In this document: positions 9,931-28,664 of the stretch, one piece after another
Numbering within the stretch: the first letter of the stretch is position 1
Layout of the letters: each line of letters begins with the position of its first letter
Sequence record: MT740315.1
Reading direction: 5' to 3' (one strand)
DNA length: 39,195 bases
DNA from: Escherichia phage JEP4
Program-made: the position numbers and the translations under genes
The notes under the pieces: generated by a model
What the model saw: only the letters and a program-made list of their open reading frames with translations
Databases searched by the model: none
What the model was told of the DNA's origin: nothing

Positions 9931-10626
9931 ATGTTATATGCATTTAAGCTGGGCAGAAAACTGCGCGGCGAGGAACCTTATTGCCCTGAAAAAGGCGGGA
10001 AAGGTGGCAGTTCTGATAAAAGCGCAAAGTATGCCGCAGAAGCCCAGAAGTATGCCGCAGACCTGCAAAATCAGCAGTTCAACACCATCATGAACAACCT
10101 GAAGCCGTTTACTCCTCTGGCTGATAAGTATGTCGGCAGCCTCGAAAACTTATCGTCTCTGGAAGGGCAAGGTCAGGCACTTAACCAGTATTACAACTCT
10201 CAGCAGTACAAAGATCTTGCTGGTCAGGCTCGCTATCAGAGTCTGGCGGCAGCGGAAGCAACAGGTGGATTGGGTTCCACTGCAACCGGTAATCAGTTAG
10301 CAACAATCGCACCAACGCTTGGTCAGCAATGGCTATCTGGTCAGATGAACAACTACCAGAATCTGGCAAATATTGGTCTTGGCGCTCTTCAGGGGCAGGC
10401 AAACGCCGGGCAAACATATGCCAACAACATGAGCCAGATTTCACAGCAAAGCGCGGCACTGGCGGCGGCAAACGCTAATAGACCTTCCGGCCTTCAATCT
10501 GCAATAGGCGGGGCTGCCTCTGGAGCAATTGCTGGAGCACAGCTTGGCAGCATTGTTCCCGGTATTGGTACTGGTATTGGTGCCGCTGTTGGCGGCGGTC
10601 TTGGTCTTCTTGGTTCACTGTTTTAA
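9931..10626 (+). CDS. Ejection (internal virion) protein, gp7-like
   Basis: 231 aa; Gly/Ala-rich hydrophobic C-terminus; synteny with P22 gp7 (229 aa). Confidence 0.6.
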   Translation: MLYAFKLGRKLRGEEPYCPEKGGKGGSSDKSAKYAAEAQKYAADLQNQQFNTIMNNLKPFTPLADKYVGSLENLSSLEGQGQALNQYYNSQQYKDLAGQARYQSLAAAEATGGLGSTATGNQLATIAPTLGQQWLSGQMNNYQNLANIGLGALQGQANAGQTYANNMSQISQQSAALAAANANRPSGLQSAIGGAASGAIAGAQLGSIVPGIGTGIGAAVGGGLGLLGSLF

Positions 10627-10636
10627 GGGTTAATCA

Positions 10637-12001
10637 ATGGCTACGTGGCAACAGGGTATTAATTCTGGTGGTTTTCTGGCTGGCATTGGTGCGCAAAATG
10701 AGAATGCACCAAAAGCAAGCGACATTAACGCAACGCTTGGTCTGATCCGCGAAAACAATGAATTGGCTCGCTCAGGTGCAAATAACGTTGGTCTGACCGC
10801 GTTACGTGGTCTGGCTGGAGTTGCTGATATTTATAAGCAGGAACAGCAACAGAAAGCGATTAATGCGTTCAATAAGGTTCACGCTGATGCATGGGCTTCT
10901 GGTGATCCATCGGGACTATTTAAGTTTGCCAAGGAAAATCCAGCGTTTGTTGCGCAGGCACAACAGGCGTTTTCCGGTCTTAATGAGCAGCAACGCAACG
11001 ATATGGGCGATTTAGCCATGAGGGCTAACGTCGCTCTTTCTCAGGGACCAGAAGCCTACAGTAAATTCATTACTGATAACAAGGACAGGTTAAATCGCGT
11101 GGGGGCGAATGCTGACTGGATGATTCAGACAGGTATTCAGAATCCAGAGCAGCTATCACACATGCTGACTACTATGTCTCTCGGTGCACTTGGGCCAGAA
11201 AAGGCGTTTGCTGTTCAGGACAAGATAGCTGGTCGTGAGATTGACCGAGGCAGACTGGCAGAGACAATCCGCAGCAATAAGGCTGGAGAGGCGCTAACAG
11301 CACGCGGTCAGAATATCACGATGCGCGGTCAGGATTTATCGATGCAGAGAGCATCAATGAAAGGGTCGGTTGGGAATAATGAGCGTACAGTTCAGTTAGC
11401 AGATGGCAGAACTGTAACGGTAGGCGGGAAGCTTCACGGCGCTGGGGCTAATGCGTTCTACGAAGGTATCGACAACGAGGGGAATATGGTTCGCGTTCCT
11501 GCTGGCTCTATTGCCGCTCCGGCTACATCGGCAGCAAGCGCGCAGAATTACGCAATGAAGAAAGATCTTGATGCAATTTCTGGTGCATCAATTGACGATC
11601 TTGGCTTCATGACTGGCATTACAGGCTCTTCAGGTTCTCCTGCTCTTGGTGCAGATATTCGTAGCCGTGCATCTGGTGGTGATCAGAGGAAACTATACAA
11701 CGCTGCACAGCGAATCCAAGGAAAGATGCAGAATCAGGGCATTGCAGCAGCCAGAGACATGGGGGCATCCGGTATCAACACCGTTGCAGAAGCAAAGATG
11801 TATTTTCAAGGTATGCCACAGGTTGATTTCTCAAGCCCTGAAGCACTGCAACAATCAATGCGCGACATTCAGCAATATACCGACAATTACAACCAACAAT
11901 ATAACGTTAATGTTGGTAAATCTCAGCGGCAGCAATCTCAACCTACACAGGTATCACAGCCAGCAGCCGGCAGTAACTTTTCTTCACTATGGGGTGATTA
12001 A
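10637..12001 (+). CDS. Ejection protein, gp20-like
   Basis: 454 aa; synteny. Confidence 0.6.
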
Positions 12002-13866
12002 TGGCTAAAGCATGGAAAGATGTTATCGCCTCTCCACAGTATCAGGCGTTAACTGAAGAACAGAAAGCACAGGCTCAAGCGCAATATTTTGATGAGGTTG
12101 TTGCCCCTAAGGCTGGTGACAAATGGGCTGAAGCAAGAGATCAGTTTTATGCAGCATACCCTCCACCTCAGCAGCAGAAAGAAGAACCATCATTGATGCA
12201 ACAAGCTGGCGATTGGCTCACTGGTGGTCAAAGTGCAGGGCAAATTGCAGAGCAGGCTGGTCGCGGTCTGGTAAACATACCATTTGACGTATTGCAGGGT
12301 GGCGCAAGTCTGATTAATGCAATCAGTCAGGGGCTTGGTGGGCCAAAAGTATTGGATGATGTTTATCGTCCAGTAGACAGACCGACAGACCCCTACGCGC
12401 AAGCTGGAGAAACAATTGGCGGGTATTTAGTTCCAGGAGTTGGAACGGCAGGAAGCATGGCTATTGGATCACTGGCAGAGGCCGCAAACCAGAAAGGTGA
12501 TTTCGCGCAAAATGCAGCCATAAATGCCGGAGTTAACCTTGCCGCTCAGGGGGTTCTTTCCGCAGCAGCAAAGGGAATAGGGCGTGGAATTACTGCTGTT
12601 CGTGGCGAAATATCACCAGCAGATCAGCAATTGCTCAAGCGTGCCGCTGCGGCAGATGTACCAGTTATGACATCGGATGTAGTTCCTCCAAAAACAAAAC
12701 TTGGCAATCAACTGCAGGGTTACTCAGAAGGAGTCATAGCTGGGACTGGACCAATGAGAGCCGCACAGCAGGATGCTAGAACCAAGCTTGTTAATCGCTT
12801 CACCGAAAAATACGGCGACTACGATCCATCTGTAGTCGTTGATAGTCTAAAGTCAGGCGTTGCAAGGGAAAAATCGTTAGCCAAGTCAAAACTAAACAAC
12901 CTGTCAGGAAGAATGGTTGGAAAGCCAGTTGATACAAGTGGCGCCATAAGAGCTATCGACGGAGCAGTAAACGAACTTGGGAAACTTAAAGGTGTTTCTG
13001 ACACCCAGACCATTTCTGCGCTTAATGATTATAAGAATGCCATTCAGGAGATAACAAATGGAGATGATGCCTTTGAGTTACTTGATAAGCTGAGAACTCA
13101 GTTCCGCATTGACGTAAAAGGCGATCGTACAGTTCTGCCATCAATGTCGCAAACAATGGTCGACAGGGTCTACAACTCGCTAACCAATAGCCTTAGTAAA
13201 TCTATAGCGAAAGGACTTAGCCCAAAAGATGCTTCAGCATGGAGAGCGGGAAAAGCTGATTATGCAAAAATGGCAACACATGCAACTCAAACGCGCCTTA
13301 AAAACGTTCTAAATAAAGGAGATTTAACTCCCGAGGCTGTAAATACCATTGTGTATGGACAATATGGGTCAGATATAGCTCGATTGTACGGGAAACTCGA
13401 TCAAAAAGGTAAAGACATGCTAAGGGCGGCATATATCAGCAAAATAGCTGACAAGGTAGGTGACAGCCCTCAGAAAATGATGACCGAGCTTGGCAAGCTG
13501 CAAAAACAAGCAAATGGTCAGGTGTTTAAAACTGTATTTGGTGGGAAGAACGGAAAAGAGATAGAGGGGATGTTATCTATTCTCGATGCTACCAAAAGAG
13601 CATCTGAGGCTAATGTTGTGACGAAGACTGGCATGACACTCGCGCCTTTGGTAAGGGTTATTGGTAACCTAAAAACCGGAGGCGCGCTATTGGCTGGGGA
13701 AACAGGGATTGGCCTTATGTCGAGGGTTTATGAAAGCCCTATGGCCAGGAATGCGCTCTTACGTCTGGCAAACACCAAAGCAGGAACGCCAGCCTATGAA
13801 AGAGCATTAAGTAACGCTGCAAATGCCATCAGACCGCTGCTTGCCACTGAGGCAACACAGCAGTGA
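12001..13866 (+). CDS. Ejection protein, gp16-like
   Basis: 621 aa; synteny; last gene of the virion block before the accessory island. Confidence 0.6.
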   Translation: MAKAWKDVIASPQYQALTEEQKAQAQAQYFDEVVAPKAGDKWAEARDQFYAAYPPPQQQKEEPSLMQQAGDWLTGGQSAGQIAEQAGRGLVNIPFDVLQGGASLINAISQGLGGPKVLDDVYRPVDRPTDPYAQAGETIGGYLVPGVGTAGSMAIGSLAEAANQKGDFAQNAAINAGVNLAAQGVLSAAAKGIGRGITAVRGEISPADQQLLKRAAAADVPVMTSDVVPPKTKLGNQLQGYSEGVIAGTGPMRAAQQDARTKLVNRFTEKYGDYDPSVVVDSLKSGVAREKSLAKSKLNNLSGRMVGKPVDTSGAIRAIDGAVNELGKLKGVSDTQTISALNDYKNAIQEITNGDDAFELLDKLRTQFRIDVKGDRTVLPSMSQTMVDRVYNSLTNSLSKSIAKGLSPKDASAWRAGKADYAKMATHATQTRLKNVLNKGDLTPEAVNTIVYGQYGSDIARLYGKLDQKGKDMLRAAYISKIADKVGDSPQKMMTELGKLQKQANGQVFKTVFGGKNGKEIEGMLSILDATKRASEANVVTKTGMTLAPLVRVIGNLKTGGALLAGETGIGLMSRVYESPMARNALLRLANTKAGTPAYERALSNAANAIRPLLATEATQQ

Positions 13867-13883
13867 CTAAATGCCATGGATGG

Positions 13884-14072
13884 TTATTTCCTTAGCACAT
13901 GAAACAATGTTTGCTTTAATTCCACCCATACAATTATGACCACTATAGACAGACAAAAGAAACTGAATGCATTGGCATCACGATCGAAACCTTCTCCGGC
14001 ACTAAATCCGTAAAAGGTCATAAAAAATATAAAAATTGCGCACTTTGCAACGTTTACAAATTTTTTCTTCAC
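13884..14072 (-). CDS. Small predicted 2-TM membrane protein (62 aa), GTG start
   Basis: GTG start preceded by AAGGAGGT Shine-Dalgarno at 5-nt spacing; two hydrophobic segments (VAKCAIFIFFMTFYGF and FSFFCLSIVVIIVWV); co-oriented downstream of the CI-like gene. Confidence 0.55.
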   Translation of the reverse strand: MKKKFVNVAKCAIFIFFMTFYGFSAGEGFDRDANAFSFFCLSIVVIIVWVELKQTLFHVLRK

Positions 14073-14132
14073 ACCAACCTCCTTAGTTTTGAGCAGGATA
14101 CCAGATGATAATGTGTCGCCTCCTAAAGGATA

Positions 14133-14774
14133 TCAAAGCAACGGGATTTCAAGGTAAACTGCGGTTGCCAAAATACTAACATCTTCATTTCTAACAAGAA
14201 TATTAGGATACATTGGGTTTAGGGATACTAGGTTTGTCTCTATTTCACCAATGTAAACCTGTTTGAAGCTCAATATTTGCTCTTTATCCAATGATGCTAT
14301 TACATAATCTTTGCTTTTAGCTTTTACTAGAGGGCTGAACGTGACAACCGATCCTCTGGGAAAGCTAATACCTGAACTTGTAGTCATAGCTTCACCTTCA
14401 ATAGTCAATGCAAATGCAGAGTCACCAACATTGTATATTGCAGGATGAAATCTAGACGATGAATGTTCACCTGTGTTTAGGTAATGCATAACTTCATCTA
14501 GTTTGAGAATTGGTATTTGCTTTACCAGAACGTCAGGCATGACGTTTTTTGTTCCCGGACCCTGACCTTCACCTAGAGCTAACCACTCAGCCGTAGTACC
14601 TAATGCGTTGGCTAATGCCTGCAATACCCGAAGCCGTGGTTTAGCCTCACCACCCTCGTATGCAGCTATTTGACGTTGAACAACACCAGCTAATTTTGAC
14701 AACTGCGCCTGCGTCATACCCCTGGACTGTCTTGCCAGAGATACTCTTGATGGGAATTGATCGTCAAAATTCAT
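14133..14774 (-). CDS. CI/LexA-like repressor: HTH_XRE N-domain plus degenerate S24 peptidase-like C-domain
   Basis: N-terminal HTH (GMTQAQLSKLAGVVQRQIAAYEGG); C-domain aligns to the c2 S24 domain in this window but has GEAM where c2 has GDSM, with Lys retained (SFKQ vs TFKK). Confidence 0.8.
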   Translation of the reverse strand: MNFDDQFPSRVSLARQSRGMTQAQLSKLAGVVQRQIAAYEGGEAKPRLRVLQALANALGTTAEWLALGEGQGPGTKNVMPDVLVKQIPILKLDEVMHYLNTGEHSSSRFHPAIYNVGDSAFALTIEGEAMTTSSGISFPRGSVVTFSPLVKAKSKDYVIASLDKEQILSFKQVYIGEIETNLVSLNPMYPNILVRNEDVSILATAVYLEIPLL

Positions 14775-14795
14775 TAGTTCACCATAAAAAATTCA

Positions 14796-14824
14796 TTGAC
14801 TCATACTGAGTGTGAGTGAATAAT
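14796..14824 (+). promoter_or_regulatory. Candidate sigma70 promoter for the Arc-like/antirepressor operon
   Basis: TTGACT, 17-nt spacer, AATAAT, about 50 nt upstream of Arc-like ATG. Confidence 0.35.
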
Positions 14825-14873
14825 CAAACTACAAAAAGTGAGATTATGAGTTTTTCAAAAACAGGAGTGCATA

Positions 14874-15047
14874 ATGACTGAAAAGATATCTTCCATCAAG
14901 CCGCGTCAGGTTCGTTTTACAGAAAAGGTTGATTCACATATCCGCGAATCAGCAAAAAGATGCCATAGGTCAATTCAGGCAGAGATAGCTTATCGAATGG
15001 AGTTATTAATGAAACTTGAGGCAAAGGGCGATGTTGTCATCCAATAA
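14874..15047 (+). CDS. Arc-like ribbon-helix-helix repressor (57 aa; below ORF-track cutoff)
   Basis: Read directly: MTEKISSIKPRQVRFTEKVDSHIRESAKRCHRSIQAEIAYRMELLMKLEAKGDVVIQ; AGGAG SD 6 nt upstream of ATG; beta-strand plus two helices pattern of Arc/Mnt RHH family; first gene of operon. Confidence 0.6.
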   Translation: MTEKISSIKPRQVRFTEKVDSHIRESAKRCHRSIQAEIAYRMELLMKLEAKGDVVIQ

Positions 15048-15120
15048 AAATAGTGAAGCCCGGCAGTGCGCGAACACAAACCGGGCCTCTATGTCAGTAA
15101 CCGTACTCAAGGAAACTAAC

Positions 15121-15759
15121 ATGAATATTGTAGCAAAATCAGATTATAACTTCCAAGGATTCACTTTTAACCCTGTAACAGAGGGCGGGTCTATCTGGTT
15201 TACCTCCACCGAACTAGCTAAGGCTCTCGGCTATAAAAAAACTGATGCCATCAGCCAAATTTATGCCCGTAATGCTGACGAATTTTCCGACTCAATGTCA
15301 TTGACCCTCAATATGAAGGTCAACGGAATAAACAATAGCTTACGTAACAAATCGGTCAGAGTTTACTCACTCCGAGGCGCTCACTTGGTGGCGATGTTTG
15401 CTTCTACGCCCAAGGCCAAAGAGTTCCGCCGCTGGGTGCTGGATATTTTGGATCGGCAGGCAGAATGCTCACCGATTGCAAAACAGTTCACTGACGAAGA
15501 GCTGGTTAATCTCTGCTACTTACAATTGTGGATGGAGAAGAGTCAACAAATGTGCAAACACATCTACCCAGGAATGAAGCAAATTGGTTCTGAGCTTTCA
15601 GGAAGGATTTACGATATTGCATATGAGACTCGCTACATGTCAGAAGAAACCAAGAAATCACTTCTTCGTGAAATGAAGAATCTTGATACCAACAATTTTG
15701 TCGTAAAGAACGCTCAGCCAATGCTGGCAAAACTTCGCGGCGAGGAATGGATTCATTGA
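15121..15759 (+). CDS. Antirepressor-family protein with Bro-N domain
   Basis: Begins MNIVAKSDYNFQGFTFNPVTEGGSIWFTSTELAKALGY (Bro-N-type); AAGGA SD; ORF-track start 15016 is an upstream extension overlapping the Arc-like gene. Confidence 0.75.
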   Translation: MNIVAKSDYNFQGFTFNPVTEGGSIWFTSTELAKALGYKKTDAISQIYARNADEFSDSMSLTLNMKVNGINNSLRNKSVRVYSLRGAHLVAMFASTPKAKEFRRWVLDILDRQAECSPIAKQFTDEELVNLCYLQLWMEKSQQMCKHIYPGMKQIGSELSGRIYDIAYETRYMSEETKKSLLREMKNLDTNNFVVKNAQPMLAKLRGEEWIH

Positions 15760-15846
15760 TTGGTGCGCCGGACTGCGCAAAAGAAAACCGCCAGTGTGCT
15801 GCTGGCGGCCTATGTCACACCCTTACTACCACATAAGGAATGCCTA

Positions 15847-16572
15847 ATGACTTTTAAGAATGTAGCAAACATCGGATCCGTTGTCACGGATAAAACCATT
15901 GACAGCCAAAGTCTTCTGATGATGGTTAATGAAGCTCGCAAGTTATGTGGAGAGCCATCAGTACGTAACAACAAATTCATCGAGAAAATTGAGGATGAAT
16001 TGGAAGGCGAGACCTACACAAAAAGTGTAGGTCGGAAAAACGGGGCTGACATTGATGTTATCTCCATGACTATCAAGCAGGCGCTTCGTGTTGCTGCTCG
16101 CGAATCTAAAGCAGTTCGCCGAACACTTGTAGACAAACTTGAAAGTATGCAGGAAGCGCACATTAAAAGCGGTAAATCAGCGAGTGGACTTGTTGAGTAT
16201 CGTCAAGCGCGAACATTGAAAATGACGGTTGAAGCTGTTACCAATCTGTTCGATCTGATGCCAAATCTTGCGCCGGAGGCAAAGCAGACAGCGGCAGCAA
16301 GTATAATCAACCCGCTCGTTGGTTTTAATGCAATACCTCTTCCGGCAATAGAAGAGCATTACTACTCAGCAGGGGAGGTTGCAGAGCAGCTTGGAGTAAC
16401 GGCCAACAAGATTGGTCGCATTGCTAACGCAAACAACCTCAAAACTGAGCAGTACGGGAAGTTCTTCCTGGATAAATCTGCGCATTCCAGCAAACAGGTG
16501 GAAGCGTTCCGCTACAATGAGGAAGGTGTTAAAGCACTACAACACCTTATTCATGGGAGTAATGTTGCATAA
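15847..16572 (+). CDS. Second antirepressor-like protein (Rha/ANT-like)
   Basis: 241 aa from ATG 15847 with AAGGAA SD; N-terminus resembles the Rha-type N-domain of the 33188 gene; domain call from recalled patterns only. Confidence 0.55.
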   Translation: MTFKNVANIGSVVTDKTIDSQSLLMMVNEARKLCGEPSVRNNKFIEKIEDELEGETYTKSVGRKNGADIDVISMTIKQALRVAARESKAVRRTLVDKLESMQEAHIKSGKSASGLVEYRQARTLKMTVEAVTNLFDLMPNLAPEAKQTAAASIINPLVGFNAIPLPAIEEHYYSAGEVAEQLGVTANKIGRIANANNLKTEQYGKFFLDKSAHSSKQVEAFRYNEEGVKALQHLIHGSNVA

Positions 16573-16793
16573 TGGCAAAGAAAAAATATGGCATTATGCC
16601 GCCAAGAATCAAAGGAAGAGCCAGGGTAAAAGGCGATGCTGGAAGGTATCACATTCTTGGAGTTCTGTGGCATGAGAGAGCTTTAATTTTAAGTAGGCCT
16701 CATGGGTACATTGAAAAGGTATCTATAGATAGAGTAGAGATTCTTCCCCTTACACCTGAAGAAGAAGAAACGTACGGACTTTTTGATAACTAA
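16572..16793 (+). CDS. Hypothetical protein (73 aa), last gene of antirepressor operon
   Basis: TAATG start/stop overlap with upstream gene; followed by terminator. Confidence 0.45.
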   Translation: MAKKKYGIMPPRIKGRARVKGDAGRYHILGVLWHERALILSRPHGYIEKVSIDRVEILPLTPEEEETYGLFDN

Positions 16794-16802
16794 CCAACTA
16801 AA

Positions 16803-16824
16803 CCCGCTTAATCGCGGGTTTTTT
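16803..16824 (+). terminator. Rho-independent terminator closing the antirepressor operon
   Basis: CCCGC-ttaatc-GCGGG followed by TTTTTT; hairpin overlaps the last codons of the convergent mnt homolog. Confidence 0.6.
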
Positions 16825-17065
16825 CTTTTCTAAGGATATCAGCCGCAACTTCTTTTACTCGTTCCGAGATTAATGAGTCCAGCCTCTCTTCTTCATCACG
16901 ATACCCGCTTACAGGTGATGGTTTGGAGAGTGATTCTTCCATCGTAGCCACAATTTCGGAATTGATAGACCTGTTATTCATTTTTGCACGCTGCTTAATC
17001 TTAGCGTGCAACTCGTGCGTAAGCCTCAAGTGGAACTGCGCCTCATCGTATTTGCTGTACATCAT
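16808..17065 (-). CDS. mnt: Mnt-like RHH repressor
   Basis: RHH core FHLRLTHELHAKIKQRAKMNNRSINSEIVATMEESL and tail SKPSPVSGYRDEEERL match recalled P22 Mnt (GRSMNSELLQIVQDALSKPSPVTGYRNDAERL); start at MMYSK with GGTGAGG SD; ORF-track 17146 start is an extension. Confidence 0.8.
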   Translation of the reverse strand: MMYSKYDEAQFHLRLTHELHAKIKQRAKMNNRSINSEIVATMEESLSKPSPVSGYRDEEERLDSLISERVKEVAADILRKEKTRD

Positions 17066-17481
17066 CAATGCCTCACCAAATGGGTGGAATGGCATCGTAA
17101 AACCTACTGTACAAATCAACAATCGTACCGTTTCGGTATGTAACAAATGCTCACCGTAGCCATGCTGCGGCGATTCCTTGTATCTGGAGCAAATTAAATG
17201 ACAGATATTATAAATAGGAATTGTTATTTAATAATGTTTGAAAATAAAAATCATGGACGATAGGAATAAAGGTATTACTTGTTTTTATTTTTGTAAGTGA
17301 CGCATTAAGCGCATAAATAATATGCCTGTTGATCAAGATTCTTGAGTATTGTAAAATAATCGTTTTGTTCATGTTGCATGGTTTTTAAATGAATAGAAGG
17401 TTATTTTTCAAAACAATTGCATCTTTGTCTGCAGTCATTCCGTTTTCTTCAATATCTAAATCTTCAAACAGGATGACTAAT

Positions 17482-19539
17482 ATGCCTGATATAACCCCAA
17501 ATGTTGTAATTGGGATGCCATCGCAACTCTTCACAATGGCTAGCTCTTTTAAAACCGTAGCAAATGGAAAAATTTATATCGGTAAGATTGACACAGATCC
17601 GGTAAATCCAGAAAACCAGATTCCAGTATATCTGGAACGAGAAGATGGTACTTATGTTCAGGTGCCACAGCCAATCGTTATCAATGCTGCTGGATACCCG
17701 GTATACAACGGACAGATTTCCAAATTCGTTACCGTGCAAGGCCATTCTATGGCTGTTTACGATGCATATGGTACGCAGCAGTTCTATTTTCCGAATGTGC
17801 TGAAATACGACCCGGATCAGTTAAGACAAGAGTTAGCAACAGAGGGTAATGAAATACTTGTTGACGACTCCCGTATTGCAGTTAAAAGTGTTCATGTAAA
17901 TTCAAAACTTAGAACACAGCACAATAAAAACGCAGAAATAATCACGCCAAATGATTTTATATCAAATTATGACATGATATCTGCAGCTATTAACTCTGGA
18001 GAGAGTGCCGCAGTATTTAATTCCAGGTATGCATTCACAATAACAGTTGGGGAATATGGTAATTTTAAATCTATTAGTGATGCTCTAAACTCAGCTGTTG
18101 CACTGCGTCCACTATGGAAAAATGGCATTGATTTTTGCATAATTAAAATTCTTTCCGGTTTTGTGCTCAATGAGCAAATAGAAATTTCAGCAGGATGTGA
18201 CTTATCATGGATTAAAATAATATCAGAAGACTCAGTGGTTTTCTCTGATACCAGTTTGTTTACTAAAACTGTTAGGACGTATTACGAATACAAATATTTA
18301 TTTTACATTTGCGATGCAGCAAAAAGTCCTGTATTTGCTATTCAGATTGAAGAAAATAGAGATGATAGCGATGTTTGTGCATTTATTGTAACTCAAAAAG
18401 CTGAACTTAATTTCTATCCGTATTCAGGTGCTCGAAAGTTCTACGTTGGAATTCATGGTAGTTTTGGTGCAAAAATTAGTGCATATCATACCGGATGTGC
18501 TCCTGATGAGGAAAGTGTTGCTGCATATATGCCAGAAGGGTATTACGTATGTGATTTTTCTTATAGCAGATACTCTTCCCTGCAACTGGTAAATAATGTC
18601 AAGGCATCAATGCCTGTAAGCAAGTTTGAACGGTGCACAGAGAGTACGGTTGCGTCAGTTAATTGTATTTATAATGTTAAAGCAGATTTTCAGGGGTCAA
18701 GTGCAAGCTATTGTTATATAGGATGGAATGTAAGAGATGGTTCAAATGTTAATATACGCGACCATAAAACTATACATTGCTCATATCGTGGATTAACCTG
18801 CATTCATACAGCATATGTTGATGCAAGACGACATGACGTTGAAGAAAGTGATGCAGAAACAAGTGGTAAAGTCCTTGAACCAAATATTGAAAAAGGTTTT
18901 TATGGATGTGCACTTGGTGTGCGTATTGATGGTGCGGGTTGTGTTGATGTTGCTGGTAATGATATGCGCAATTGTGGAACAGCCGTTAATGCAGACACTG
19001 GTGCTGTTATTTCAGGAAAAGCTGTAGATATCTCAGGGGCTGAGTTGGGATTTGATTGCCATGCAGGAGCATCTGTTAATTTTCCAAGGCTATGGGGTAC
19101 AGATATAAAAAAATTAATGCACCTCCAAGATGGTGTAAGGTTTAACTCTAATATTTGTCATGTATTTGGTGCAAATCCCACAAAAGATATTAGATGGATT
19201 GATGTAGAGAGATCTGAAGCTTCTTTTATGAATGCAACGCTGGATGCAGATTCAGGATTTATTGCTGACTGTGGTAGTAGGATAACCATTGAAGGAAGTA
19301 AAGTTAAAAACCAAACAATAAGAAGTTTTTTTGGATCACATGTGGCTATAAATAATACTGTTGCTGACAGAACTTATTCAGATATAGCCGATGTTCCGCA
19401 GTTGACTATTAGTGGAGGATCTTTTATTTCTGCTACAGGATATTCTAATTCTGACTCCAGCCCTCTTAGGTTGAGCACAACACGAAATACACTTGGAGTT
19501 GGAGGAGCCATATTTTCAACCAATGGGGAAGTTTCATGA
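17482..19539 (+). CDS. Tailspike protein: P22-family head-binding N-domain plus divergent receptor-binding domain
   Basis: N-terminus MPDITPNVVIGMPSQLFTMASSFKTVANGKIYIGKIDTDPVNPENQIPVY matches the P22 gp9 head-binding domain pattern; remainder is AT-rich and unrelated to my recollection of P22 gp9; ORF-track start 17389 is an extension. Confidence 0.85.
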   Translation: MPDITPNVVIGMPSQLFTMASSFKTVANGKIYIGKIDTDPVNPENQIPVYLEREDGTYVQVPQPIVINAAGYPVYNGQISKFVTVQGHSMAVYDAYGTQQFYFPNVLKYDPDQLRQELATEGNEILVDDSRIAVKSVHVNSKLRTQHNKNAEIITPNDFISNYDMISAAINSGESAAVFNSRYAFTITVGEYGNFKSISDALNSAVALRPLWKNGIDFCIIKILSGFVLNEQIEISAGCDLSWIKIISEDSVVFSDTSLFTKTVRTYYEYKYLFYICDAAKSPVFAIQIEENRDDSDVCAFIVTQKAELNFYPYSGARKFYVGIHGSFGAKISAYHTGCAPDEESVAAYMPEGYYVCDFSYSRYSSLQLVNNVKASMPVSKFERCTESTVASVNCIYNVKADFQGSSASYCYIGWNVRDGSNVNIRDHKTIHCSYRGLTCIHTAYVDARRHDVEESDAETSGKVLEPNIEKGFYGCALGVRIDGAGCVDVAGNDMRNCGTAVNADTGAVISGKAVDISGAELGFDCHAGASVNFPRLWGTDIKKLMHLQDGVRFNSNICHVFGANPTKDIRWIDVERSEASFMNATLDADSGFIADCGSRITIEGSKVKNQTIRSFFGSHVAINNTVADRTYSDIADVPQLTISGGSFISATGYSNSDSSPLRLSTTRNTLGVGGAIFSTNGEVS

Positions 19540-28013: not shown

Positions 28014-28664
28014 TTATGGAAGGTTTGCTAGTTTTGCATCGACAACTACGCCGATGATTTTGCAGTTTCCGTTGATCTCGATCATCGGATATTGTGGGTT
28101 AAGTGGTTTTAGAAACTTCCTGCCTGCATCAATAACTAACTTCTTGAAAGTTGCCTCGTTTTCTCCTTCTAGCTTTGCAACTACCAGTTTCCCGTTACGC
28201 GGCTCTACTTCAGGATCGACGAGTATTATCATTCCTTCAGGGATACTGAGACCGGCCGGAGCCGTCATTGAGTCTCCCTTCACGTCCAACCAAAACGAAT
28301 CTTCTGAACAGTCTACGGTTGTATCGTACCAGTTATCTATTGCACGCTTATGATATGGTTCTACAGCTTCCATCCAGCATCCTGCGCTCACCCAGCTAAT
28401 CAGAGGGTATGACCCTCTTGGATCATGCCTACTGTGATAGGCAATGTTTGAAAGACTTTCCTCTCCTTTCATCAGATAGTCAGGGGAACACTTCAACGCA
28501 TTAGCCAGGGCGAGAAGATTCTCTCCATTTGGCTCTGTCTCAGAGCGTTCCCACTGAGATATGGCAACATTAGACACGCCGACCATCTTTCCAAGTGCGG
28601 CCTGCCTGATCTTGAGTTCTTTTCTCCGAGCGCGAATGCGCTCTCCCATCAATTGAGTTTTCAT
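28014..28664 (-). CDS. c2: Prophage repressor, P22 C2-type (HTH plus S24 peptidase)
   Basis: MKTQLMGERIRARRKELKIRQAALGKMVGVSNVAISQWERSETEPNGENLLAL matches P22 c2 as recalled; intact catalytic GDSM and FKK; Ala-Gly in linker. Confidence 0.95.
   Translation of the reverse strand: MKTQLMGERIRARRKELKIRQAALGKMVGVSNVAISQWERSETEPNGENLLALANALKCSPDYLMKGEESLSNIAYHSRHDPRGSYPLISWVSAGCWMEAVEPYHKRAIDNWYDTTVDCSEDSFWLDVKGDSMTAPAGLSIPEGMIILVDPEVEPRNGKLVVAKLEGENEATFKKLVIDAGRKFLKPLNPQYPMIEINGNCKIIGVVVDAKLANLP

Follow-up and report, generated by a model that had tools for sequence, protein, structure and literature searches.

How is an antirepressor operon kept silent in a P22-like prophage when the gene for its repressor Mnt does not stand where P22 has it? 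The repressors of P22, L, lambda and 21 are inactivated by Ant, the antirepressor of P22, which is dispensable for induction (PMC3121763); its expression is controlled by Mnt, Arc and sar (PMC2629481). The question is raised by Escherichia phage JEP4 (MT740315.1), the whole 39,195 nucleotides (nt) of which were analysed and are referred to below as the window. At positions 13884-17065 an island occupies the slot of the P22 immI region: a rightward operon, which opens with a gene for a 57-amino-acid (aa) protein, here called RHH57, and goes on with two antirepressor-type genes, lies divergent from a gene for a CI-like protein, and a homolog of Mnt is found convergently at the far end. The reading that we favour, and to which we give a probability of roughly 0.55, is that this island would be a functional analogue of immI made from different parts, with the CI-like protein doing the job of Mnt.

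A full comparison with the complete prophage of E. coli UTAK-8, together with gene content, identifies the window as a complete P22-like genome. Head genes, ejection genes, island and nin/Q/lysis genes match between the two, and the window further contains cII, replication genes of the O/DnaB type and a gene for a lambda-type integrase. The slot is bounded by the gene 16 homolog (12001-13866) and the Head_binding tailspike (from 17482), in synteny with the UTAK-8 prophage. The initial annotation, made from the letters alone, had thus set the island correctly between ejection gene 16 and tailspike of a P22-like phage, and the list of open reading frames (ORFs) contains all the genes it had claimed, where it had put them. 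It had also called the island an immI-like antirepressor locus with three types of DNA-binding protein, and these are indeed found: a CI-like protein of the helix-turn-helix (HTH) and S24 type, a small probable ribbon-helix-helix (RHH) protein and an Mnt homolog. Its remark that the island is AT-rich relative to the flanks is true with respect to gene 16 and to the whole window (42.7% GC versus 47.1% for each), but not to the tailspike, which is lower still at 39.3%.

The leftward gene (14133-14774, minus strand) encodes 213 aa, with an HTH_3 domain (PF01381, 48.4 bits, E = 9e-13) followed by a Peptidase_S24 domain (PF00717, 47.9 bits, E = 1e-12). Domains and gene order both agree with the prediction of a CI-like HTH-S24 gene in the divergent position that Mnt holds in P22. 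What does not survive is the SOS cleavage implied by the wording 'CI/LexA-like'. In HMMER, solved structures of lambda CI can be aligned with the C-terminal domain, and this alignment sets 'TIEGEAMT' opposite 'EVEGNSMT' of lambda CI, i.e. an alanine at the position of the nucleophile Ser149, while the lysine of the dyad (Lys192 in lambda CI) is kept ('SFKQV' opposite 'TFKKL'). At the cleavage column the protein reads 'DEVM', where lambda CI, P22 C2 and the two primary repressors mentioned below have 'QAG/SAG', and no Ala-Gly or Cys-Gly occurs in its linker (residues 66-120). In a family table made of the window protein and 31 homologs, a single homolog (P0016) has Ala-Gly at the cleavage column. 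The nucleophile is alanine in the window protein and in P0001, P0002, P0004 and P0005, which are 72-99% identical to it, and also in the P0022/Providencia/Morganella group, where in addition the lysine is replaced by arginine; GDSM is kept in P0003 (81% identical) and in most relatives at 40-50% identity. LexA S119A and lambda CI mutants of Ser149 or Lys192 do not self-cleave. Since the nucleophilic serine is replaced by alanine, the Ala-Gly site is absent and the corresponding LexA and CI mutants remain uncleaved, this repressor is, as far as its sequence tells, not inactivated by the known mechanism, RecA-stimulated autocleavage, and its S24 domain presumably serves oligomerisation only.

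Thus the protein resembles lambda CI, P22 C2 and LexA in having an N-terminal HTH_3 domain, a C-terminal S24 fold and the dyad lysine, but differs from them by the alanine, the missing Ala-Gly and the lack of an immC context (the neighbours cro, cII and N are absent), and we propose that it controls the local antirepressor operon only. The genome has a separate primary repressor of the P22 C2 type (216 aa, 28014-28664) with Ala-Gly site, GDSM and FKK all intact, and the same three cleavage determinants are kept in that of the UTAK-8 prophage. Comparison of the CI-like gene with the copy at locus L016 gave a nonsynonymous divergence (dN) of 0.18 (0.23 in the S24 domain) versus synonymous sites (dS) that are saturated, which argues that the serine-less gene is not decaying but under purifying selection. 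In UTAK-8 the identical protein, WP_001008290.1 (locus L005, 2034-2675), is called 'LexA family transcriptional regulator' in RefSeq, and 'helix-turn-helix domain-containing protein' elsewhere; the LexA label implies SOS self-cleavage, against which the sequence argues.

An indication that the CI-like protein is concerned with the antirepressor operon comes from the way in which its gene moves. In a prophage of the O19:H7 strain 730V1 (locus L004), homology to the window covers 13600-14114 and 15041-17210 but not what lies between, where that prophage has an Mnt-type gene, and where promoter region and 57-aa gene, the latter of the Arc family, are not those of the window. Because the homology breaks at both edges, with an Mnt/Arc block in the gap, the block 14115-15040 (CI-like gene, divergent promoters and RHH57) is evidently exchanged as a unit for an Mnt/Arc block, the same payload standing behind. 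The initial annotation had described a rearranged immI; the comparison points instead to a mosaic of independent modules. It also means that Mnt and Arc of P22 are not the sole control used in this slot, a second and widely spread regulatory pair being swapped in before the same payload.

None of the phage records in our collection holds more than 27% of the region, and at least 80% of it is found in 18 complete E. coli genomes; the regulatory block 14115-15040 is present in 28 out of 5,426 genomes, in each case as one copy on the chromosome. Among phages, the CI-like protein has its closest homolog, at 41% identity, in Providencia phage PSTNGR2lys. The gene of this homolog is divergent from genes for a 56-aa relative of RHH57 (40%), for a Bro-N protein (69% across the N-domain) and for a protein homologous to the 241-aa one described below (74%, C-terminal half), and the locus adjoins a tail fibre gene. 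Four metagenome or genome contigs with CI-like homologs of 44-72% identity have the same divergent arrangement with an antirepressor of the P22_AR_N type, in settings as varied as a lambda-like tail region, an HK97-like tail and tailspike region, the vicinity of an integrase and that of a Q antiterminator gene. Scanning one genome per species brought ten more loci, in Yersinia, Klebsiella, Tatumella, Providencia, Xenorhabdus, Morganella and an Enterobacterales bacterium. In all ten, a gene of about 57 aa and of the same family starts about 100 nt away on the opposite strand, and the gene following it is of an antirepressor family (Bro-N in seven cases, P22_AR_N, KilA-N+ANT and Rha+ANT in one each). 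Altogether, the CI-like gene is divergent from an RHH57 gene, at a distance of about 100 nt, and an antirepressor-family gene in 16 out of 16 loci, a count that includes several closely related ones, from Escherichia to Xenorhabdus and in several phage types. On these comparative grounds the CI-like/RHH57 pair is shown to be a conserved, portable unit dedicated to antirepressor control.

The initial annotation had been unable to match the layout to any immunity region and considered that it might be undescribed. In fact it was drawn, as the HS-1 region of an E. coli HS prophage, in Fig. 3 of Villafane et al. (2008, BMC Microbiol 8:227; PMC2629481), a study which named the 'ant moron' of this slot and distinguished ten types in sixteen genomes. 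HS-1 has the identical CI-like protein (WP_001008290.1) and the identical 57-aa protein (WP_021518013.1), the same antirepressor type, the 241-aa gene and the far-end Arc-family gene, all in the same order; it differs by an IS3 insertion sequence (IS) in the 241-aa gene and by a 212-aa gene in place of the 62-aa ORF found at the left of our island. The authors noted an 'apparent lack of arc genes' and inferred that control differs from that of P22 (PMC2629481). The region was drawn there without recognition of the 57-aa gene, of the inactive S24 site, of the hairpin resembling sar or of how widely the cassette occurs, and our literature search found no paper identifying the regulators, the dead active site, a sar-like element or this spread; in that sense the claim of novelty stands, no characterised system with such a set of regulators having been found. 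The remark made in 2008 can now be attached to named parts: operator candidates, a 57-aa gene and a sar-like element.

The operator candidates lie in the 99 base pairs (bp) between the divergent genes (14775-14873). The promoter noticed there by the initial annotation is borne out by the promoter scan as a rightward promoter-like site, TTGACT-17-AATAAT at 14796-14824, with 10 of the 12 consensus positions. The pentamer TGAGT/ACTCA occurs four times in the 99 bp, a clustering without parallel in the window, where the background is 0.18 per 99 bp. A perfect palindrome, ACTCAtacTGAGT at 14799-14811, found once in the window, overlaps the -35 and is nested within a longer symmetric element, ATTgACTCA..TGAGTgAAT (14795-14821); downstream of it comes GTGAGATTATGAGT (14838-14851). 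Distant loci share 'cATTGACTCAT' and, about 45 bp downstream, an inverted 'ATGAGT', and conservation extends to the HTH recognition segment 'VVQRQIAAYE' of their CI-like proteins. Searches of 14775-14873 for a LexA box (CTGT-N8-ACAG, at most one mismatch) and for a P22-type Omnt palindrome or a sequence in common with the upstream region of the Mnt homolog found none; LexA-box matches occur at chance frequency window-wide.

The first gene of the operon (14874-15047, plus strand) belongs to PHROG 10182 (E = 2e-37) and encodes RHH57, probably, to judge by its similarities, an RHH DNA-binding protein. Its Pfam matches are to ParD_like (E = 8e-4), Arc (16 bits, for a cutoff of 20.4) and FitA-like (E = 0.12), all below threshold. 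In hhalign it aligns with Arc in register (E = 1.3e-4, probability 54%), and the best match of its family profile in the PDB, a weak one (E = 0.085), is AmrZ, a protein of the Arc family. A tblastn search of phages with RHH57 returned no match. The description of the first gene as an 'Arc-like RHH' is right as to its presence and probably as to its fold, but the protein forms a distinct family that remains under the Pfam threshold for Arc. We propose that it is an analogue of Arc.

Between this gene and the antirepressor gene lies an element that the initial annotation had not described. A hairpin at 15055-15089 is alignable to sequence from seven other loci and to the arc-ant region of UPF_BP1, a phage of the P22 type. 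In the alignment of nine sequences, 96% of the cells pair, and compensatory changes are seen in 6 of the 10 pairs; no shuffle attains the observed score, and sliding the partner gives at most 59% pairing. Its orientation can be read from two features: a T-run follows the stem on the minus strand only, and one of the pairs is G.U on the minus strand in four sequences, where the plus strand would have C.A. The minus-strand fold has a z-score of -4.45, and leftward promoter-like sites occur inside the antirepressor gene at 15170-15143 (10/12) and 15156-15127. Hairpin and leftward promoter-like sites have the same layout as the sar RNA of P22 (PMC2629481). By homology and covariation, then, a structured element overlapping the antirepressor translation start is shown to be homologous to the sar region of P22, and we propose that it specifies a sar-like antisense RNA (15045-15136, minus strand) terminated by the 15055-15089 hairpin and having its 5' stem-loop antisense to the ribosome-binding site of the antirepressor. 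In 7 out of 12 loci, despite differing antirepressor types, the antirepressor frame is open upstream through the hairpin (15016-15120 in the window) and overlaps the stop of RHH57; the others are L013, L019, L020, L022, L023 and L028. The conserved hairpin sequence may have this open frame as a by-product, or the frame may hint at an alternative upstream start.

Placed side by side with P22 immI, the island therefore has the same slot between gene 16 and tailspike, a leftward repressor divergent from an operon of a small RHH-type gene followed by an antirepressor gene, a homologous hairpin between these two, an antirepressor with the same P22AR_C domain, and an Mnt homolog. It differs in that the divergent repressor is a 213-aa CI-like pseudo-S24 protein instead of Mnt, the small first gene is of a distinct family, Bro-N replaces P22_AR_N, the operon has extra genes of 241 and 73 aa, sieA and hkcC are absent, and the Mnt homolog lies 2 kb away, convergent, in a separate mosaic module. 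If the island does work as an analogue of immI, then in a lysogen the CI-like protein would bind the ACTCA/TGAGT repeats over the -35 and the spacer of the rightward promoter, and so keep the antirepressor operon off, which is the role of Mnt in P22. Because the protein cannot self-cleave, DNA damage would leave the operon closed, and prophage induction would be left to the cleavable C2-type primary repressor. When phage DNA arrives in a host without the CI-like protein, the operon would fire; by analogy with P22 Ant, the antirepressors may then bind and inactivate the CI/C2-type repressors of resident or related prophages. Later RHH57 and the leftward antisense RNA would shut the operon down again, like Arc and sar in P22, and the far-end Mnt homolog would be a separately inherited repressor, probably autoregulatory, with the region near the tailspike or the cognate promoters of other phages as possible targets. 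The action of antirepressors can extend in trans to other prophages (PMC3121763). They let prophages wake or disarm one another, and the way in which they are controlled thus affects induction, superinfection immunity and gene flow in Enterobacterales.

Several points weigh against this scheme. The assignment of RHH57 to the RHH proteins, probable but not proven, is based on sub-threshold matches; its single-sequence AlphaFold2 (AF2) model is one long helix, which we deem unreliable for an obligate dimer, and a fold search with this model returned nothing. In the control region, the promoter scan found no consensus-grade leftward promoter for the CI-like gene, the palindrome over the -35 is perfect only in the window lineage, several relatives keeping the left half-site only, and any of the repeats may be bound by the CI-like protein or by RHH57. 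As to the antisense RNA, its leftward promoters are consensus matches only, and Rfam, searched for sar with E values of up to 1 admitted, gave no match in the window. What we propose for the far-end Mnt homolog is guesswork, and a search for a shared operator found none. Finally, 'antirepressor' is a family label, and Bro-N, KilAC and Rha proteins have other reported roles too.

The last point leads to the alternative that we find somewhat unlikely rather than negligible, namely that the payload is not directed against immunity: the cassette would then hold off, in the lysogen, transcription factors, anti-defence proteins, toxic host-takeover proteins or exclusion proteins. The first payload gene (15121-15759, plus strand, ATG at 15121) encodes 212 aa with Bro-N and P22AR_C domains (the latter at E = 2e-13) and belongs to PHROG 245 'Ant' (E = 2e-50), as expected from the Bro-N antirepressor predicted initially. 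It has the C-terminal domain of P22 Ant, P22AR_C, behind an N-terminal Bro-N instead of P22_AR_N, and is 99% identical to Ant of the siphovirus SPN3UB, where it is under an Mnt-like/Arc-like pair; a sequence search of the PDB returned designed helical repeat proteins only. The second gene (15847-16572, plus strand) encodes the 241-aa protein, which has no Pfam match and belongs to PHROG 1726 'anti-repressor' (E = 2e-102), a family with more than 2000 clusters in Enterobacterales. Its AF2 model is moderate (predicted local distance difference test 70, predicted template-modelling score 0.35) and matches predicted viral KilAC, antirepressor C-terminal domain and KilA proteins in BFVD with Foldseek, at E down to 7e-9. 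Together with the PHROG assignment, these fold matches uphold the earlier view of a second antirepressor-like gene. A PDB search with the sequence gave nothing meaningful, and the last 65 or so residues of the model have weak PDB matches to winged-helix domains of the MerR/Xis type.

It can be said for a payload of another kind that very few Bro-N, KilA-N, KilAC or Rha proteins have been functionally tested, their labels being family annotations, that the C-terminal domain of the 241-aa protein resembles a small DNA-binding domain, and that even in P22 what Ant does is 'not completely understood' (PMC3121763). Moreover, the payload is interrupted in two independent prophages, by IS3 in the 241-aa gene of E. 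coli HS (locus L008, 5051-6852) and by IS100 in the island of MS15236 (hit H44), which might fit costly genes. Yet P22AR_C is held in common with the experimentally defined Ant of P22, an antirepressor-family gene follows RHH57 in 16/16 loci despite the swapping of domains, and the PADLOC defence models gave generic HTH matches only (to the N-termini of RmrA and CapH), with nothing significant for the other six island proteins. The initial annotation had also suggested a superinfection-exclusion switch, but for an exclusion function we found no evidence. The operon ends with a gene for a 73-aa protein (16572-16793, plus strand; PHROG 4977 of unknown function, E = 5e-54) that overlaps the stop of the 241-aa gene and has no match in Pfam, NCBIfam or PADLOC, and with an intrinsic terminator (16800-16821, plus strand), an 8-bp stem followed by a T-run, which overlaps the 3' end of the Mnt-like gene.

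Another possibility, which goes further than the immI analogue and which we regard as doubtful, is that the pseudo-S24 repressor, RHH57 and the paired antirepressors constitute a portable bistable switch, in which one antirepressor (e.g. the 241-aa protein) would target the CI-like repressor and the other the primary repressors of the C2/CI type. If this were true, the cassette would be a second decision circuit, independent of SOS and found in several morphotypes, which controls the cross-induction of co-resident prophages, and the loss in the family of the cleavage site, then of the serine, then of the lysine would record its evolutionary uncoupling from SOS.

One may also ask whether the Mnt homolog is not, after all, the true maintenance repressor of the antirepressor promoter, leaving the CI-like protein with some other job such as immunity against a different element. 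The gene (16808-17065, minus strand, convergent with the operon) encodes 85 aa with an Arc-family domain at E = 4e-15; the Prokaryotic Genome Annotation Pipeline (PGAP) puts its start at 17062. The protein is 45% identical to P22 Mnt and 43% identical to Mnt of UPF_BP1, taken from its record, and the convergent far-end Mnt homolog announced by the initial annotation is thus confirmed. A 95% identical protein is encoded in phage VSe13, there directly before the tailspike. The idea has in its favour that Mnt does precisely this in P22 and that the homolog is intact and under strong purifying selection, with a dN/dS of 0.027, so that it would be functional and selectively maintained. We nevertheless hold it to be quite improbable. 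The homolog is missing from other HTH-S24 loci (e.g. L016, L012 and L013) and occurs without any full antirepressor in phages of the VSe13 type; its DNA-contacting N-terminal strand differs from that of P22 Mnt; neither an Omnt palindrome nor shared upstream sequence was found in 14775-14873; and it is the CI-like gene that forms one swap unit with the promoter region. To judge by its distribution, the Mnt homolog forms, together with some 135 bp before its gene, a mosaic module of its own, outside the cassette.

The region upstream of the Mnt-like gene (17066-17210), whose right edge coincides with the breakpoint of the L004 homology, is conserved in an alignment of five phages and prophages and ends with the ancestral tailspike start, ATGACAGATAT at 17199. 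Neither a consensus-grade promoter nor an operator in common with any Pant region was found in it; a 9-mer shared with the Pant of L004 was tried as an operator candidate of the Mnt homolog and rejected, being the sole match and compatible with chance. At 17107-17122 the same region has CTGTacaaatcaACAA, a LexA-box core with one mismatch that is invariant in 4 of the 5 aligned phages; window-wide, matches of this kind come at the chance rate. A minus-strand hairpin with a T-run, resembling a terminator, lies at 15785-15811 between the antirepressor and 241-aa genes, and leftward transcription out of the Mnt-like gene could end there.

A coupling of the operon to SOS deserves little credence. 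It would make the CI-like protein the target of RecA-dependent cleavage and the antirepressor operon a damage-inducible amplifier of induction, much as for the LexA-controlled antirepressors of 186, N15 and Gifsy, but with a phage-encoded repressor. The S24 domain is recognisable and the general-base lysine is kept; furthermore, most of the distant relatives retain the Ser-Lys dyad, P0016 even together with Ala-Gly, and the ancestral cassette may have worked in this way. Against it are the alanine at the nucleophile position in the window protein and its relatives P0001, P0002, P0004 and P0005, the linker devoid of Ala-Gly and Cys-Gly (30 of 31 homologs having no Ala-Gly at the cleavage column), the promoter without a LexA box, and the canonical cleavable C2 repressor of the same genome, with which the prophage does not need this route. 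The known systems illustrate the difference. Like the antirepressors of our island, 186 Tum, N15 AntC, GfoA/GfhA/GftA of Gifsy and FsoA of Fels-1 are encoded outside the immunity region and held off by a repressor of the S24 family, but the controller is LexA of the host (with FsoA it is FsoR, a primary repressor that can be cleaved), and the antirepressors are damage-inducible. The Gifsy prophages have small, non-cleavable repressors of their own, and the island represents the inverse: its primary repressor is cleavable and the secondary one is without nucleophile and cleavage site. Fels-1 FsoR/FsoA was also considered as a characterised member of the cassette, and rejected, fsoA being a PL-operon gene controlled by the primary repressor and encoding a small protein of the GftA type.

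Least credible of all is the view of the island as a moron in decay, its genes having lost their function: the slot is in rapid flux, with ant and arc genes degraded in some phages (PMC2629481), the dead S24 site can be read as decay, and variants with pseudogenes and IS insertions exist, but the ORFs are all intact here and in an apparently complete prophage, dN of the CI-like gene is far below its saturated dS and dN/dS of the other genes is 0.03-0.2, the alanine at the nucleophile position is kept among proteins just 72% identical, the hairpin has compensatory changes, and the module is conserved across genera.

At the left end of the island, a 62-aa ORF with two hydrophobic stretches (13884-14072, minus strand; PHROG 21338 of unknown function, E = 5e-45) had been linked to the CI-like gene as a small protein with two transmembrane segments. 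The comparisons point elsewhere: it accompanies the end of gene 16 into phages with an ordinary mnt-arc-ant region, and the homology of L004 reaches 14114. Its only tblastn matches, all unannotated, are in phages phiv205-1 and UPF_BP1, both of which have other immI types (ordinary mnt-arc-ant), and none of the records searched has it annotated. An identity with orf62 of phage L was rejected, the matches being confined to these two phages. Its distribution makes the ORF, which may or may not be a real gene, part of the left-flank module, with the end of gene 16, and not of the regulatory cassette.

The island (13600-17400) is 100% identical to that of a prophage remnant in E. coli E100341, the match as a whole covering only 10234-17836 of the window. 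This remnant (locus L006, NZ_CM128606.1, 1853562-1870735) is an example of a heavily deleted P22-like prophage located between sbcB and dacD in 8 complete-genome records from 4 strains (E100341, AST19, AST205 and EC0026B). Genes of immC, replication, lysis and head are missing from it, and its ejection genes contain an IS3; the antirepressor island of the deleted prophage is still 100% identical to the window, every ORF being intact.

On the tailspike side, the ancestral start is followed by a 270-bp segment of 27% GC (17211-17481) with a promoter-like site at 17329-17357, and the actual tailspike start is at 17473/17482. An in-frame ATG at 17389 would add to the tailspike a leader resembling a Tat signal, MNRRLFFKTIASLSAVIPFSS, and is probably spurious. 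The tailspike gene (17482-19539, 39% GC) encodes the head-binding domain of P22, the remainder of the protein being without Pfam match. Its homolog in E100341 extends to 861 aa; the ORF of the window ends at 19539, and identity between the two is lost after 17836.

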